Virus record (IMG/VR): IMGVR_UViG_3300010429_001883
Location: 32,001 to 96,000 of that record
Length of the DNA stretch: 64,000 nt
Origin: a virus
Lineage: Duplodnaviria; Caudoviricetes
Reading direction: 5' to 3' (one strand)
A program made the translations under genes and the position numbers. The notes below the pieces were generated by a model, which was not told where the DNA came from, searched no databases, and saw only the letters and a program-made list of their open reading frames with translations. Every line of letters starts with the position of its first letter. Position 1 is the first letter of the stretch. Shown here piece after piece: positions 1-6,581 of the stretch.

Positions 1-1
1 A

Positions 2-928
2 AACTCTTTCGGCCCCTGCCGTGAACATGGTGAGGAACTGCCGATCAGTGAAACAGGCACCGCGATGGTCCACGATACCTCCCACGATCAGCAGGCTGAC
101 CGACGGCAGCCAGTCGGTCTTGAAGTTGACCTCGTGGTAAACGATGTCAACACCAGGACCAAGGCGCCAAGAGACACGAGCATTGCCCTTGACAATGCCT
201 CTGCCCTTAAACACAATTCTCACACACTTGAGAATTGTGCCTTCGGGGAGAGGCTGGACTCCCCGAGCGCGCCAATTAGATCCATATAGCAGGCGCATAA
301 TGTACTCGCCTGATACATGAATACACCCGTCATGGGCAGCCTTAAGGCTGGCTTCGAGAACGTCGTCAATTTCGACGCCCTCAGAAGCCGTAACCTCTCG
401 CTGCCCCTCGTCGGTGAGCACCGCGTACCGAAGGCTTTCCGACTGCCAGTCGACAGCCAGAACGCCGCCCAGTAAGGCGCTCATCCGAGCGAAGACGGTG
501 CCCATGATGGCTTTCATGGGCTTGTCTGATGTAGGCATGCCCCACATGGACATGCCCTTGACCACTCCGTCAGCCCAATCGGGGTGGACATAGAACGTCC
601 ACTTGGACTGTCGGATGACGCACCACAGGGTCGTGGGCTTACGGAGCTCACCACGAAGAAGGGTTACCGCCTTCTTTCGCAGCCACGCCTTTCGGGTGCG
701 GACGACAGAAGCATCGACGTCCCAAGACTCAATTCTGAGCTTGGAAGCATCGAGCTTCTTTGATTCGAGGAAGCCCAAGAGGACGGCAAATCGGCCCGTC
801 TCCTGGGATTCCTCACGCTCAACGTTGAGGTACCGGCCTTCCTCAACCGAAACAGTCACTTTCGTTTTAGGAAAGCGGCTGTTGTTGAGGAGTGTCCCCA
901 ACTTTCGCATGGCTTTCAGTACAGCCAT
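2..928 (-). CDS. N-terminal ~309 aa of a putative YonO/QDE-1-like single-subunit two-barrel RNA polymerase (runs off window edge)
   Basis: Translated by hand because it is absent from the ORF track (no stop in window). ATG at 928-926 with RBS AAGGAGGAG; frame open to base 2. Motifs in order: FARMS, HDGCIHVS, R..KGRGIVKG, DIVYHEVNFK, TDRQFL, matching the AR / DG..IS / R..KG / I...K / NRQ order of the RdRP/YonO family. Confidence 0.65.
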   Translation of the reverse strand, partial: MAVLKAMRKLGTLLNNSRFPKTKVTVSVEEGRYLNVEREESQETGRFAVLLGFLESKKLDASKLRIESWDVDASVVRTRKAWLRKKAVTLLRGELRKPTTLWCVIRQSKWTFYVHPDWADGVVKGMSMWGMPTSDKPMKAIMGTVFARMSALLGGVLAVDWQSESLRYAVLTDEGQREVTASEGVEIDDVLEASLKAAHDGCIHVSGEYIMRLLYGSNWRARGVQPLPEGTILKCVRIVFKGRGIVKGNARVSWRLGPGVDIVYHEVNFKTDWLPSVSLLIVGGIVDHRGACFTDRQFLTMFTAGAERV

Positions 929-938
929 GGCTCCTCCT

Positions 939-1280
939 TTATTCCCAAGGAGGGAGATCGGTGGCCGGACATTCGGTGTCCGGCTCTCGCCCTCCAGAAG
1001 GAATCGGCTCTGTGGGGATTAGCCACGACTTGGCCGCAGCCAAGGAGCTAAATCCCCGGAAATTGGCACCCGACAGGTTCTGAGTGAACCCGTAGGCGCC
1101 TTTCTGGCCATACCATCCCTCGATGATAAGGCCTTCCGGGTACAAGAAGACGGACTTGCCGATGTCCGCCTTCGTGTAGCGGGATTTGATCCGCTCTCGG
1201 ATCTCCTCCCGGTTCTTTTCGGAGATCTTAATGGAGAAGAAGCGGAAACGCTCCTTCACCTTATAATAAGGTGCTGCCAT
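939..1280 (-). CDS. Protein with RNase H1 N-terminal hybrid-binding (Cauli_VI/viroplasmin-like) domain
   Basis: GGAGG RBS. C-terminal half GLIIEGW..AYGFTQNLSGANFRGFSSLAAAKSWL resembles the GIY..W......GYSGA.YK.F.....A..FL pattern. Confidence 0.55.
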   Translation of the reverse strand: MAAPYYKVKERFRFFSIKISEKNREEIRERIKSRYTKADIGKSVFLYPEGLIIEGWYGQKGAYGFTQNLSGANFRGFSSLAAAKSWLIPTEPIPSGGREPDTECPATDLPPWE

Positions 1281-1289
1281 CTTGGCCTC

Positions 1290-1382
1290 CTAGTGCTTGC
1301 GGAGATAGCGAGCGGTGGCCTCGCAGATCTCCACAAGAACCCAAAAAATGAGGATAGCGAACACTGGCCAAAAGTAGGCCAT
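1290..1382 (-). CDS. Small single-TM protein (30 aa)
   Basis: MAYFWPVFAILIFWVLVEICEATARYLRKH; TAATG coupling to upstream gene and GAGGAG RBS. Confidence 0.55.
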   Translation of the reverse strand: MAYFWPVFAILIFWVLVEICEATARYLRKH

Positions 1383-1528
1383 TAGCTGTTCTCCTCGATG
1401 TGCTCGAGGACAGTCATCGCAACGGTGACTGCCCCGAACAAGATGACCACCGCGCCCACTGCGTATGCAATGAGCAACGGTGGGTACAAAATACAAGATT
1501 GGAGCAGCTGCTCCAATCCCAACGCCAT
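1382..1528 (-). CDS. Small membrane protein (48 aa)
   Basis: Hand-translated MALGLEQLLQSCILYPPLLIAYAVGAVVILFGAVTVAMTVLEHIEENS; TAATG coupling and CAGGAGG RBS. Confidence 0.55.
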   Translation of the reverse strand: MALGLEQLLQSCILYPPLLIAYAVGAVVILFGAVTVAMTVLEHIEENS

Positions 1529-2418
1529 TACGCCACCTCCTGGAGGAGGACGCCCAGCCGGGCGAGCTGGACGTCCACCACCGCCTGAGCCCTTGCGAGG
1601 CTCAGGTCGGTGGCCTCCATACGGGCCTTCTGGGCCCGGAGTTGGGCGGCGCCGGAGTGGATCGCCGCCAGGATCGCCGCGTTGTCCTTCAACGCGGCGA
1701 TAAACTCCGGATGCCTTGCTGTGGCATCCAGAGCGGCGACGACGTCCGCCGCGGCGAGGCGGCGGGAGGCTTCAAGCCCCCGGAGCCGAAGCTCCAGGGA
1801 CTTGATCCGCCGGGCAGTTTCCCGGCGGCGGACAGCAAGCCCTGCCCATTCCTGGGCGAGGGCCACCTGGCGGAGGCGCATCCGCCAGATGTTGAGGGCC
1901 TTCTCGGCCTTGGCCGCGTCGGGCCGCGTCCAGGCCGAGCCGCTCCCCCACTGCTTGGGGGAGCGGGTCTTGGTCTCCACCGGCTTGCGCCAGCGAAGAA
2001 GCCGGGCCTTGCGGGCCGCAGCCCGCTTGGCCCGACGTTCCTCCAGCCGCGGGTGCTGGAGTGCCTGCTCCAGCGCCGCAGCCTCTTCGCGCCGTTGGCG
2101 GCGGCGCGAAGCTTTGGAGGAATGGCCCTCCAAGCGGGTCAGCACCCGCTTGGAGGGGTTGGCCGAACACATTCGGGCCTGCGCCTCAGAAGCGAGGCGG
2201 GCAGCCCGAAGCTGCTTGGACGCGACAGCCCGGCGGAGCCGAGCTGTCCGGATAGCCTGGGCGCAGGGGCCGGCGCCCACGGTGGCGCCCCGGAAGGCGC
2301 CCAGGATGGTCCGCCCCTTGGGCGGGCGAACCATCCCCTCCTGGGCCAGCAGGGCCAGCCCGATCAGGGCCAGCGCCTGAAGGCCCATGAGGACGGTCAG
2401 GACGAGGATGATGCTCAT
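1528..2418 (-). CDS. Membrane-anchored Ala/Arg-rich coiled-coil protein
   Basis: AAGGAGG RBS, N-terminal hydrophobic helix, coupled to the next gene. Confidence 0.65.
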   Translation of the reverse strand: MSIILVLTVLMGLQALALIGLALLAQEGMVRPPKGRTILGAFRGATVGAGPCAQAIRTARLRRAVASKQLRAARLASEAQARMCSANPSKRVLTRLEGHSSKASRRRQRREEAAALEQALQHPRLEERRAKRAAARKARLLRWRKPVETKTRSPKQWGSGSAWTRPDAAKAEKALNIWRMRLRQVALAQEWAGLAVRRRETARRIKSLELRLRGLEASRRLAAADVVAALDATARHPEFIAALKDNAAILAAIHSGAAQLRAQKARMEATDLSLARAQAVVDVQLARLGVLLQEVA

Positions 2419-2420
2419 TA

Positions 2421-2482
2421 GAGCACCTCCTTGTTGTTGCGTTTAAGCTAGCTGTATGTCGCTAGCGGGCACGTCGTAGCCC
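2421..2482 (-). promoter_or_regulatory. Structured 5' leader, copy 1 (two hairpins + TTAAACGCAA + RBS)
   Basis: Near-identical to 3359-3415; stem 2 is GCTAGC/GCTAGC. Confidence 0.7.
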
Positions 2483-2596
2483 ATATGTCAACCCATGGGT
2501 GTAAGCGTCAATACCGCCGCTACCATGGGGTACTACTACAGATAGCCCTGTAGCACAGCCGCTCCTCTTTTACGTCTTTGGAGTCGCGCTCGGACT

Positions 2597-2652
2597 GGGG
2601 CATGACACTCCATGCCCCTGTAAAAGATCATACTCCCATGAGTGTATGGGAG
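2597..2652 (-). ncRNA. Two hairpins with mutually complementary 6-nt loops (kissing-loop candidate)
   Basis: + strand GGGGCATG-ACACTC-CATGCCCC and CTCCCAT-GAGTGT-ATGGGAG. Confidence 0.6.
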
Positions 2653-2667
2653 GGAACGTTACTTTGA

Positions 2668-2835
2668 CTACTTGGTGGTCATGGTCTCGGCGGCCGCCAC
2701 CAACACCACCCGGTCGGCGGCCGACATGGCCGCCAGGTAGCGGCGCATGAACGCCACAGCCTGGGCCGTGGCGCTCACCTTCTGCTCCACCGTTGTCAAG
2801 GCCGCAGCCTTGACATTCGTCTTCTTCTCGGTCAT
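2668..2835 (-). CDS. Hypothetical protein (55 aa)
   Basis: ATG at 2835 with TGGAGG RBS (MTEKKTNVKAAAL...). Confidence 0.6.
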   Translation of the reverse strand: MTEKKTNVKAAALTTVEQKVSATAQAVAFMRRYLAAMSAADRVVLVAAAETMTTK

Positions 2836-2991
2836 GGTATCTATCCTCCACTGGGCGGGGCGTGCCGTTGCAGAGAGCCCCTTTAACCCATACTTAACCC
2901 CATAATCCATATTATGAGGTTGAGTATGAGTGCCCGATATTTATTATCGCCTCGGAGCAGGGCGATATCTTACATCCCCTTAGATCGGGGC

Positions 2992-3357
2992 TTAGTTGGT
3001 CTGGGTAGCCACCTCAATGTGGGTGAACTCTCGGCGGGGGGCATACACCGCCTGAAGGGAGAACAGCATGTCGATTGCCTCTTCCCGGTAAGAGGCTCGG
3101 GTTGACTTGAAGAGGTGGTTGTCGATCATAAGATTAACAACCCAATACCCGGAGTTCAGTTCTCTGATGTAGCCGGAACAGAGCCCGTTCCGGCCATCAT
3201 ATTTAAAGCTGCGGGTGGTGGTGGTCATGTCCTTGACCACACGTGGGGTGGCGGGGACGGCCTTGGCGTTGGCCTTGGCCTTGGCGTCGAGGGCGGCGGC
3301 GATCACGATGATGCCGATGATCACGACGATTCCGATCACGATGGCGATGATGCTCAT
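2992..3357 (-). CDS. Membrane-anchored hypothetical protein
   Basis: GAGGAGG RBS; N-terminal Ile/Val-rich TM helix; starts MSII like 1528-2418. Confidence 0.7.
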   Translation of the reverse strand: MSIIAIVIGIVVIIGIIVIAAALDAKAKANAKAVPATPRVVKDMTTTTRSFKYDGRNGLCSGYIRELNSGYWVVNLMIDNHLFKSTRASYREEAIDMLFSLQAVYAPRREFTHIEVATQTN

Positions 3358-3358
3358 A

Positions 3359-3415
3359 GAGCACCTCCTCTTTTTGCGTTTAAGCTACCTTAAGGTAGCG
3401 GGCACGTCGTAGCCC
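3359..3415 (-). promoter_or_regulatory. Structured 5' leader, copy 2
   Basis: Repeat of 2421-2482; stem 2 is GCTACC/GGTAGC (compensatory change). Confidence 0.7.
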
Positions 3416-4030
3416 TTTAAACCACATTAAAGCACATTAACATTACTGCTAATGTACTTTAAAATGGGGAGGGGACTACCTACCCATAGCCCATGGTATG
3501 TACCTTGTGGTACTCATGGAGCTAGGACTATGGCATAGGCAGTCCCCTCTAGTGGAGGGAGATACCAACCCACTAGCTGTCACCTAGTGAGTTGATATGG
3601 ATTTATGCTACTACTTGCACCGTAGCATCTGGTGCGTGTCAGTAGCCAGGGACTACACACTAGTGACCACTATTTGTGGTATAGTGCGCTGTTGGGCAAC
3701 TCGGGTATAAGGCAATATGCCTACCCTTGGCCCATCCTGGGTAACCAACACATGTATTGTCGTACTAGCACACTGGTATGCTAGAGTACCTGGTATTCTC
3801 CTTCAAAGGAGATAACAGAATAGGTACTTTACGGTATGTCCACCATCTTATGGACATAGCCCTACTGTTTGATGTAGGACATCATCTGTGTGGGAATAAG
3901 CCACACTCTTCTCTCGCTTTTCTAGATAAAGCAAGGCAAACTGTTGATGGGGTGATTGCCAATGGAGATGGCCCATCAACCGACGGGGTGGCATTGAAAC
4001 GAATTGCTTCGTCACAACACCACTACTAGG
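3416..4030 (-). ncRNA. Putative ~600-nt highly structured non-coding RNA or leader
   Basis: More than ten inverted repeats back to back; stem mismatches become G-U pairs on the minus strand; no credible ORF. Confidence 0.6.
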
Positions 4031-4213
4031 TAACCTCTAAAAAATATAAGTCCTTTTTTCCCTATATAAGGCTTTTTCCTTTTTTTCTAATTTCCTTTTT
4101 TCCTTTTAACCTTACACCTTCCTTAAAATAATTTTAAGTATTGTGATTTTTCTTGTTTATTTCTAGGTAAAGTTAGTGTATAATAGAGATAAGTCTAAAG
4201 AAGGAGAAAGCAG

Positions 4214-4429
4214 ATGTTTAATGATAGGTTTAAATGGTTAGTGATTGAGGAGGACGGGTGGGGTGACAGAACAAGTGGGGCTTGTTTCAAGAATAAGAGG
4301 GATGCAATTAAGAGGCTAAAGGAAATTAATTTAATGAATGGGTACACAGGGAAGTGTGCGGGTGCTCAATTATACAAGTTAGAACTGGTTGATACGAGTG
4401 ATGTTAATTGCATTTTGGAGGACAACTAA
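4214..4429 (+). CDS. Hypothetical protein
   Basis: AAGGAG RBS; TATAAT at 4179-4184 upstream. Confidence 0.65.
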   Translation: MFNDRFKWLVIEEDGWGDRTSGACFKNKRDAIKRLKEINLMNGYTGKCAGAQLYKLELVDTSDVNCILEDN

Positions 4430-4430
4430 G

Positions 4431-4676
4431 GTGTTCAAGTTACCGGGCAGGGTCAATGAAATAGCCAAAGTCTATTTAATTAAGAAGGGCGATGAAACTC
4501 CTAGGATTATTCAAGCGAAGCAGGCGATAGACGACATGCAATATTTATTATGTGTTTTAGCTGTAGTGAGTAATGCTTATGAGAATTTAATGGAGGGTGC
4601 AGACGATGAAGCTGTAGACTTATCTATGGATGTGGATAAATTAATAAGTAGTGGAACTGACATTTTATATAGGTGA
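4431..4676 (+). CDS. Hypothetical protein
   Basis: GTG start after GGAGG; in frame with ORF 4389-4676. Confidence 0.55.
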   Translation: MFKLPGRVNEIAKVYLIKKGDETPRIIQAKQAIDDMQYLLCVLAVVSNAYENLMEGADDEAVDLSMDVDKLISSGTDILYR

Positions 4677-4688
4677 GGTATTTAAACC

Positions 4689-4970
4689 GTGGCAATAGAA
4701 TTAAGAGAGAGTTTAGTACTGGTAGTAGATGGGGCGGAGCTTGAGGTAACTAGGGAGGAAGCGGAGGAGATATATGAGGTATTGAAGAGGTACTTAAACA
4801 AGGGTGAGGAGATCAAGTGGGTACCGTGGTATCCCACACCATATTTTTATGAAACCACTTATCCACCGGAAGGGGGGAAGTGGGAGGTTACTATTACTAC
4901 GAATGCGGAGGATGGCAACGAAGGGCCTTGTTATATATCTGACATGAACCAACCTAACAGGGTATGGTAA
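4689..4970 (+). CDS. Hypothetical protein
   Basis: GAGGT RBS, GTG start, tandem operon packing. Confidence 0.6.
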   Translation: MAIELRESLVLVVDGAELEVTREEAEEIYEVLKRYLNKGEEIKWVPWYPTPYFYETTYPPEGGKWEVTITTNAEDGNEGPCYISDMNQPNRVW

Positions 4971-4973
4971 GGT

Positions 4974-5162
4974 ATGGGACAATCAATAAACAAGGATGAA
5001 GTAATGGTAGGTGAGGTACTAGTGGATGTAAAGGACAATTTACTTCACGAGAGGTATTTTGATAATCCTTGGCTAGCTGAGAAGACGATATATGAATTAG
5101 TAGGGATAGTGGAGCAACTACTTGTTTACATAGAGGTATTATCGAATGAAGGTGGGCGGTGA
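4974..5162 (+). CDS. Hypothetical protein
   Basis: Tight operon packing. Confidence 0.5.
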   Translation: MGQSINKDEVMVGEVLVDVKDNLLHERYFDNPWLAEKTIYELVGIVEQLLVYIEVLSNEGGR

Positions 5163-5237
5163 GTATAATATACAGAAGTGTAAATTTTAGTTATACTATA
5201 TAACTTGGGAATTTCCCTGTAAGGGAGGTAGTTAAGT

Positions 5238-5444
5238 ATGAAATTTGGATTTAAAAGAAACACCAAGTTTATGGAGAAGATAGCTGACAGGTTAGAGAAT
5301 GGTTATTATGATGTAGACAGTTACCTAGACATATTGGAGAAGTGCTGTGATGAGTTTGAGGTGGGGGCGGAGGAGCTATACGAGGAACTCCGCAAAGAGA
5401 AGTATTTAAGGGATTTAGCTATAAAGAAGAATTTTTCTGACTAA
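5238..5444 (+). CDS. Hypothetical protein
   Basis: AGGGAGG RBS; TATACTAT motif upstream. Confidence 0.6.
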   Translation: MKFGFKRNTKFMEKIADRLENGYYDVDSYLDILEKCCDEFEVGAEELYEELRKEKYLRDLAIKKNFSD

Positions 5445-5557
5445 CAATTAAAAAGGGAATTAAAAAGCATATATTCTAGGTATAAGTGTGTACCTAAAAT
5501 ATAGTGATATAAGGAATTAGAGATTTTAAAAACGCCGCGGCGGCTTCAGGAGTATAG

Positions 5558-5959
5558 ATGGCCAATTACATATTGATTGAAATACCTGAGACAGATGAGA
5601 ATGGGGATGACATAGATCTTTATCAATTGGATAAGATAGTCTTCATGATAAAGACTAGTTTAGATCCAGTAAGTGTACGGAACGTATTAAGTGTAGCGTA
5701 CAGGAAGATAAATGATTCAGTTCAAGGCGAGTTATGGTATAATGAATGGTTAGGTTCTCACAGTGATTGTAGTAAGGTAATTGAGGCCATGGGGTACTTA
5801 GGTGAATCTGTAGGTAAGAAGTTAGTGGATACTTATAAAGCAATGAATGAAAGTCAGTTAGTTAATTTAGAAGAGTTTTTAGAGGAGTACAAGAACAGTC
5901 CTGATTTAACGGACATAGTGATGAAGAAGGATGACAAGAGGGAAGAGGATGGTTACTAA
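5558..5959 (+). CDS. Hypothetical acidic protein
   Basis: CAGGAG RBS. Confidence 0.65.
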   Translation: MANYILIEIPETDENGDDIDLYQLDKIVFMIKTSLDPVSVRNVLSVAYRKINDSVQGELWYNEWLGSHSDCSKVIEAMGYLGESVGKKLVDTYKAMNESQLVNLEEFLEEYKNSPDLTDIVMKKDDKREEDGY

Positions 5960-6581
5960 GCCATTTACTATAAGTTTTGACATTGATGGTGTCTGGTGTG
6001 ATTTTGTTTTTGGGTTTACCAAGATAGCTCAAGAACTGGGTATGATAACCCACGTTAACAAAGTTCAAGAACAAAAATACTGGTCATTTAAAGATTCTCA
6101 TGGTTTAACTGATAAGGAACATGAGAGGTTAGTTGAGAGGTTAGAGGAATTAGGGGACAGGTTTTGGGTTAGCATCCCGCCGGTTAATGGGATTACTCCT
6201 TGGGAAACGTATAAGAGCTTGAATAGGAGATCGGATACTAGAATAGTCTTTATTACTTCCAGGCGGTTTTGTACCCTTGGTGGGATTCAAGAGTGGTTCA
6301 AGCAATACGGGCAGATAGACATAAAGAAAGAACAGATTTATATGGTTACTAATAATGACAAAAGGTCGGCGGCCATGCAGGCAGAAGTAGATATACATAT
6401 CGACGATAGCCCCGAGGCGCTGGAACTGTTACTCGATAAACCCTACCCTAAACAAGTAGTCGGGATAAAGTATAAGTATAACGAACATCTGTGGGCAGAT
6501 AAACGTATTATGTGGGTTGATTCTTTAATTGATTATTTATTGCTTTGCCAACAAACCTTACGAAAAGAATATGCGTATTAG
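5949..6581 (+). CDS. HAD-superfamily 5'(3')-deoxyribonucleotidase-like protein
   Basis: Motif I FDIDGV, motif II FITSR, motif IV IHIDDSP. Confidence 0.8.
   Translation: MVTKPFTISFDIDGVWCDFVFGFTKIAQELGMITHVNKVQEQKYWSFKDSHGLTDKEHERLVERLEELGDRFWVSIPPVNGITPWETYKSLNRRSDTRIVFITSRRFCTLGGIQEWFKQYGQIDIKKEQIYMVTNNDKRSAAMQAEVDIHIDDSPEALELLLDKPYPKQVVGIKYKYNEHLWADKRIMWVDSLIDYLLLCQQTLRKEYAY

Follow-up and report, generated by a model that had tools for sequence, protein, structure and literature searches.

Two adjacent hairpins with exactly complementary six-base loops form a discrete 57-nt unit, which is real and under strong constraint in the early operon of a large virus of the Caudoviricetes. The unit is probably an intercistronic RNA boundary element, and loop-to-loop docking of its two hairpins, as modelled here, is plausible. 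The explanation that we prefer overall, tentatively and with a confidence just short of even, is a cis-acting boundary cassette with docking loops that is also a recombination joint.

The two-hairpin spacer and its operon

The window (the whole stretch of 64,000 nt that was analysed) corresponds to bases 32001-96000 of a single virus record of 148,472 bp, which contains terminase, portal, tail-fibre and ribonucleotide-reductase genes. Its terminase was ~30% identical to Moorella and large Bacillus phage terminases, and near-identical DNA was contained in runs from anaerobic digesters, wastewater and sludge. The G+C content was ~36% genome-wide, with the exception of a block of 58-62% at 24-35.7 kb of the genome (window 1-3700). 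Considering that the genes of this GC-rich block are carried by the minus strand, the hairpin pair should be read as RNA on that strand. The early message runs leftwards from ~4200, via small accessory genes, to a polymerase-like gene. Downstream of this gene and outside the operon studied here, a purine-rich word of ~17 nt occurs in at least 8 plus-strand copies that adjoin terminator-like hairpins (L001:1229-10754, genome 19.2-28.8 kb).

The hairpins lie in a spacer of 249 nt (2419-2667), between the stop codon of a 55-aa ORF (2668-2670) and the ATG of a 296-aa ORF (2418), and neither ORF had a match in Pfam or PHROGs. The features of this region are collected in table 1. A plus-strand open frame of 313 aa (1480-2421) runs antisense to the 296-aa ORF and is codon-aligned with it; most simply, it is a by-product of the GC-rich codon usage of the 296-aa ORF, and the substitutions weakly favoured the minus-strand frame over the antisense one.

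Table 1. Features of the spacer and its flanking genes, in window coordinates and in the order of transcription
Feature	Position	Strand	Remarks
Upstream 55-aa ORF	2668..2835 (codons 2671-2835, stop 2668-2670)	minus	No family match; one of three unrelated small ORFs preceding the cassette
Invariant 57-nt cassette	2596..2652	minus	Comprises both hairpins, the linker and one more base; occurs once in the genome
Hairpin A (transcribed first)	2633..2652	minus	7-bp stem, 6-nt loop ACACUC; starts 15 nt past the stop of the 55-aa ORF
Linker between A and B	2619..2632	minus	14 nt, A/U-rich; invariant in all copies
Hairpin B (transcribed second)	2597..2618	minus	8-bp stem, 6-nt loop GAGUGU
37-nt extension	2559..2595	minus	Accompanies the cassette in some relatives; diverges normally
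6-bp hairpin	2536..2553 (arms 2536-2541/2548-2553)	minus	Stem kept and loop changed in L006
7-bp stem closing a 24-nt insert	2492..2529 (arms 2492-2498/2523-2529)	minus	Only in window-type relatives
Leader cassette of the 296-aa gene	2419..2482	minus	Invariant 4-bp hairpin, second hairpin with a compensatory change, conserved linker, Shine-Dalgarno site; second copy at 3358-3415
Downstream 296-aa ORF	1528..2418	minus	N-terminal membrane helix, Arg/Ala-rich; 13 perfect hairpins of at least 7 bp

The original prediction had placed stems of 8, 7, 6 and 7 bp in a structured spacer of 185 nt. All four stems were found on the plus strand, where stem 2597-2618 has the loop ACACTC and stem 2633-2652 the loop GAGTGT; the loops are exact reverse complements and the hairpins are 14 nt apart, as it had said. 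The spacer is indeed structured (folding z against shuffles -3.2 on the minus and -2.6 on the plus strand), and its predicted length had to be corrected to 249 nt. Both hairpins were predicted on either strand by ViennaRNA. In the RNA of hairpin B an extra G-U pair is possible, by which the loop shrinks to four bases in a plain fold. In its loop and in the three stem pairs next to the loop, hairpin B is the reverse complement of hairpin A, whereas the four outer pairs of the two stems show neither relationship nor complementarity to each other. In a lax scan hairpin A appeared weakly terminator-like, with 5 U among the 8 bases after the stem and several other bases preceding the U run; the terminator scan found no U run after hairpin B. 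No sigma-70-like promoter was found on the minus (coding) strand of 2419-2667, including the linker.

The leader cassette of the 296-aa gene and its second copy (2411-2482 and 3358-3415) each reach into the first five codons of a membrane-anchored protein, and the two proteins are otherwise unrelated. The first hairpin of this leader cassette was invariant in 13 of 13 loci, while the second showed a G-C to C-G swap and a different loop. RNA-library contigs from four runs were compared with positions 1-6000. Those of one run lay on 2233-2517 and 3530-3720, and those of another on 3374-3577 and 3759-4004. The depth was 2-4, and none of the contigs overlapped the cassette, a gap that carries no weight as evidence; such contigs cannot show transcript ends. 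The contigs on 3374-3720 and 3759-4004 come from two studies and fall within or near a leader of ~800 nt without any ORF (3416-4200, z -11.8), which is conserved in L008, L012, L014 and L016.

The whole operon is covered with hairpins. Between 32 and 36 kb of the genome, 33 perfect hairpins of at least 7 bp were found in 4 kb, compared with ~2 per 2 kb elsewhere, a five- to tenfold higher density, and dozens of similar hairpins of 7-14 bp occur in the operon, coding parts included (window 1-4200; genome 28-36 kb; minus strand). The 296-aa ORF has 13 of them, versus 1.2 in dinucleotide shuffles and 2.3 in synonymous-codon shuffles, and the 1117-aa polymerase-like ORF also has 13, versus 1.5-1.9 in shuffles. 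Across nine lineages the stems changed at 4.2% and the loops at 13.2% of positions (p ~1e-21), so that stems evolve about three times more slowly; several stem changes were compensatory across lineages, and the third-position excess in the 296-aa ORF was weak (e.g. 44:41:66). In windows of 150 nt over 1-4200 the mean folding z was -4.2 for the sense and -3.4 for the antisense strand (Wilcoxon p=0.003), and this better folding of the sense strand points to selection at the RNA level. Control genes at 8-12 kb had z ~0. The other spacers were folded to an equal degree, with z -4.3 (2836-2994) and -11.8 (3358-4214). A local exception is the interval 2551-2700, with slightly better folding on the plus than on the minus strand. 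Among stem variants, G-U and A-C pairs numbered 23 and 15, too few to name the folding strand.

Distribution and conservation of the cassette

The relatives investigated were the homologues of the 296-aa protein (ten clusters, 53-96% identity) with their contigs, and three more reached via the polymerase-like protein. We found that the 57-nt cassette was identical in five loci (L004, L012, L014, L016 and L038). In L006 one stem base was changed, which opens the loop-closing pair of hairpin A and leaves both loops intact, and partial copies in L003 and L013 were identical as far as the contigs reach. The neighbouring downstream coding sequence in these loci had 80-85% nucleotide identity. The 37-nt extension had changed at 9 of 185 nt (~5%) in the same loci versus 1 of 242 for the cassette (p=0.003), and the cassette loops had no change in 72 nt versus 146 in 1109 nt of the operon's other hairpin loops (p=1e-4), both probabilities being nominal because the copies are related, the region is mosaic and recombination can spread one sequence. 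These comparisons speak for a constraint on the very sequence of the loops and the unpaired linker, beyond the needs of a plain stem-loop. No homologue with non-complementary loops was found: the loops were identical in 7 of 7 copies and the linker was invariant too, hence compensating loop changes are not on view, and loops that never vary give no positive test of the pairing either.

The cassette always starts 8-20 nt past the stop codon of the upstream ORF, and its upstream partners belong to three unrelated families (55/56 aa, 40/41 aa and 74 aa). Downstream, four different contexts were found, the gene and its distance both varying among relatives. Sequence identity between relatives ends at the cassette edges, the flanks are mosaic, and the cassette sits at breakpoints of gene swaps. 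In the 148-kb genome it is present once, even in a search allowing 2 mismatches per hairpin word. In L008 it is absent, the long leader being directly followed by a 299-aa gene; the cassette is thus dispensable.

Other mobile or exchangeable pieces were observed in the same operons. In some relatives the slot of the two-hairpin cassette is taken by a second invariant cassette (2879-2994, minus strand), made up of a 7-bp and then a 20-bp hairpin. The 7-bp hairpin has a loop that could pair with a conserved tail just downstream, a possible pseudoknot; for this pairing (~2940-2975) one divergent copy keeps a 4-base match, without clear covariation. A DDE transposase gene (PF01609) lies just outside the long leader in L006:351-1592 and L007:1106-2446, which indicates that an insertion sequence landed next to the start of the operon.

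Scans for the same stems with any loops gave no match in viral contigs, 4 matches in genome contigs and 12 in metagenome contigs, all in unrelated DNA; the metagenome scan missed the known JGI relatives, so absence from it is weakly informative. IMG/VR searches with the 296-aa protein, the polymerase alignment, the 285-aa protein of L040 (a distant relative described below) and a leader word returned nothing, and neither did Megablast against GenBank phages.

Loop complementarity and docking

Genome-wide (148 kb), 374 perfect hairpins of at least 6 bp formed 56 adjacent pairs, and only 1 of the 56, namely A-B, had at least 5 complementary loop bases. No such adjacent pair occurred in 30 block-wise dinucleotide-shuffled genomes. 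With the operon's real loops as background, 0.024 adjacent complementary pairs were expected and 1 was observed, and among the 1540 loop pairs of the operon three matched over 6 bases versus 0.63 expected (p=0.02). The loops of A and B cannot count as fully independent of each other, because their likeness also covers the three loop-proximal stem pairs, and judged from the sequences their complementarity could stem from an old inverted duplication. On the other hand, the unrelated outer stem pairs make an extended A-B duplex poor, which is what a kissing design needs and what a fresh duplication would not yield. In fact, a switch to the extended duplex was rejected on energy (-10.6 versus -24.8 kcal/mol, 14 kcal/mol worse). 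The value of -24.8 kcal/mol is the computed energy of hairpins A and B, to which the loop duplex adds -6.4 to -8.3. A compact loop-to-loop fold would therefore be feasible in these models, both sterically and energetically.

A further 11-bp hairpin in the polymerase-like gene (212-239, minus strand) has an invariant loop that shares five bases with loop B and is thus complementary to five of loop A, 2.4 kb away. This five-base match is within chance expectation.

A second pair of similar geometry was found in L040, whose polymerase-like protein is 30% identical to that of the studied phage. Just upstream of its polymerase gene L040 has a 285-aa membrane-anchored, Arg-rich ORF with marginal similarity to the 296-aa protein, and inside this ORF (L040:7539-7596) two 7-bp hairpins with a 14-nt gap have loops that contain the 7-base complements TGGCGGG and CCCGCCA. 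This pair has no relationship to the cassette in either its stems or its loops. When three operons were pooled with the real-loop background, 2 adjacent complementary pairs were observed versus 0.046 expected (Poisson p ~0.001). Two cautions concern L040: its pair is embedded in coding sequence of very high G+C content, and a nested fold there exceeds the two hairpins by themselves in stability. In the model, each of the two pairs would yield a stack of 21 bp tethered by 14 nt, and A-form geometry suggests that 14 nt is roughly the shortest strand that could span a helix of 21 bp. A third candidate pair, in the polymerase gene, shows 5 complementary loop bases across a gap of 12-13 nt in L012, L038, L006 and L008; since this genome and L013 have lost the match and L004 lacks the pair altogether, it was read as chance.

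The support for kissing is indirect: the invariant loops and linker, the non-complementary outer stems, the look-alike in L040 and the feasible energetics together make it plausible. With the pair in an intergenic cassette here and in a coding region in L040, one may go further and propose that tethered intramolecular kissing hairpins (14 nt, ~21-bp stack) are a recurrent, selected device in the hairpin-covered early messages of this group, giving otherwise nuclease-proof RNA one defined site of processing or protection. We consider this broader proposal doubtful, with perhaps a quarter of our belief behind it.

The strongest competing explanation is that A and B are ordinary tandem hairpins of the general hairpin cover, A perhaps being a weak stop signal, that the loop match is chance or the leftover of an inverted duplication, and that the identity of the copies reflects recent recombinational spread. 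Dozens of similar 7-14-bp hairpins are indeed present in the operon and the scan found A terminator-like, yet the loops and unpaired linker of this pair are invariant, compared with changes of 13% in other loops and 5% in the extension. The match of B to the reverse complement of A beyond the loop is what a duplication would leave, whereas the outer stems differ at four pairs with the loops still matched. Recombinational spread agrees with the flanks, whose mosaic pattern sets in right at the borders of the cassette as it does at recombination joints, and loops that never vary offer no covariation to set against it. The explanation as a whole does not sit well with an unrelated pair of the same geometry in the distant L040. 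We regard this explanation as unlikely on balance, though close to a third of our confidence goes to it.

Other readings and the role of the cassette

The cassette could also act as DNA. The two hairpin tops form an inverted repeat on double-stranded DNA, that is, two inverted words of ~12 bp that are 35 bp apart, at which a dimeric phage protein might bind or hairpins might be extruded, as in an operator, a recombination site or a hairpin-type promoter of a phage polymerase. Invariant loops fit recognition by a protein, perfect Watson-Crick stems are strand-symmetric, and folding of the plus strand in 2551-2700 is no worse than that of the minus strand. However, each half-site is itself part of a perfect 7-8-bp palindrome, a feature for which a plain operator has no need, and, given one copy per genome and its absence from L008, the cassette does not serve as an essential promoter or origin. 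Considering also that the coding strand has no sigma-70-like pair and that the surrounding operon folds as sense-strand RNA, we judged an element of this kind improbable.

Still less probable is a cis-acting RNA of the put or nut type that modifies the transcribing polymerase and aids read-through of the hairpins downstream. The put RNAs of phage HK022 are two-hairpin RNAs and in this resemble the cassette. Such a role would suit an invariant two-hairpin RNA that precedes, in an early operon, a long hairpin-rich stretch through which transcription must pass, and the virion RNA polymerase of phage P23-45 has sequence-specific termination signals (PMC10770324). Nevertheless, the cassette is dispensable, as its absence from L008 indicates, its position in the operon varies, and it has no sequence likeness to any catalogued element.

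The original prediction had further offered a riboswitch-like aptamer or a pRNA-like intermolecular contact, and these we can hardly credit: complementary loops could in themselves also pair between molecules, but there is no multi-helix junction or pocket, no expression platform and no packaging context, the downstream genes and distances vary, and Rfam gave no match. Its more general claim of a compact tertiary fold fared better, since the element is real and constrained and a loop-to-loop fold is feasible.

We then return to the boundary cassette with docking loops. The place right after stop codons, the changing partners and the operon-wide RNA folding fit an intercistronic RNA boundary element, and the fixed position is also compatible with the nuclease-blocking role that had been suggested. 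What we observed are two hairpins that are conserved, occupy a fixed position and have mosaic flanks; from this we infer loop docking and a nuclease-related or boundary function. The cassette would be one 57-nt cis-acting RNA unit in a long hairpin-rich early message, directly behind the stop of an accessory small gene. If the loops dock, stem A, a 6-bp loop helix and stem B would stack into a helix of ~21 bp bridged by the linker. Such a compact block may delimit the upstream cistron on its 3' side, by stopping 3' exonucleases or by providing a processing or pause site. The role that we favour is protection or processing at the 3' end of that cistron, by a block that loop docking would tighten. 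Efficient intrinsic termination is unlikely, because the U run of A is displaced, B has none, and the polymerase gene downstream would be cut off. At the DNA level, the invariant sequence may be the joint for gene-cassette exchange between relatives.

Several known systems share parts of this picture. In T4-type phages, promoter-early stem-loop (PeSL) cassettes are present in many copies per genome and contain a strong sigma-70 promoter (PMC2839356, PMC4122927). Both they and the cassette are short, near-identical intergenic stem-loop units between small non-essential genes of the early region, and in both systems gene-swap breakpoints between relatives fall at the cassettes; in contrast to PeSLs, the cassette here has no detectable promoter, is single-copy and consists of two hairpins with complementary loops. 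REP/BIME/REPIN-type repeats were rejected, the cassette being single-copy and the outer stems of A and B not being complementary. T4 species 1 RNA (rnaC), folded for comparison, has a different architecture and shares no loop words.

Loop-loop (kissing) RNA complexes are represented by ColE1 RNA I/RNA II and TAR-TAR*. With these the cassette shares short stems and fully complementary loops of 6-7 nt. In Staphylococcus aureus, RNAIII forms stacked loop-loop complexes with coa or rot mRNA that are recognised by RNase III (PMC2837412), and the ~21-bp coaxial stack predicted for the cassette is the kind of helix that RNase III cleaves there. All of these complexes involve two molecules and regulation in trans, whereas here the pairing is predicted within one RNA over a 14-nt tether.

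The RNase III sites of phage T7 and the sites of Bacillus phage SP82 are conserved structured elements between cistrons of early messages, each of them a single long irregular hairpin of ~20 bp, and cleavage leaves protective hairpins on the upstream fragment. The cassette likewise is a conserved structured element between early-message cistrons, and differs in that each of its stems has only 7-8 bp. The virion RNA polymerase of P23-45 recognises a conserved 26-nt termination motif with seven copies near one genome end (PMC10770324). Like the cassette as interpreted here, this motif is a non-canonical signal with a conserved sequence that lies where early transcription units end, and the phage supplies a polymerase of its own; the cassette differs in being single-copy. 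Rfam covariance models run over the 64 kb gave no match at the gathering score, and the matches at a lax threshold (E ~3) lay away from the cassette.

If the loops do not dock, the cassette would be one more conserved intercistronic hairpin cassette. If they do, it would represent a compact, uncatalogued RNA tertiary motif with a simple rule: two stems of 7-8 bp, 6-7 paired loop bases and a 14-nt tether. Such a motif would provide a handle on how hairpin-covered early messages are cut, protected and punctuated, and also on how small accessory genes are shuffled between related phages.
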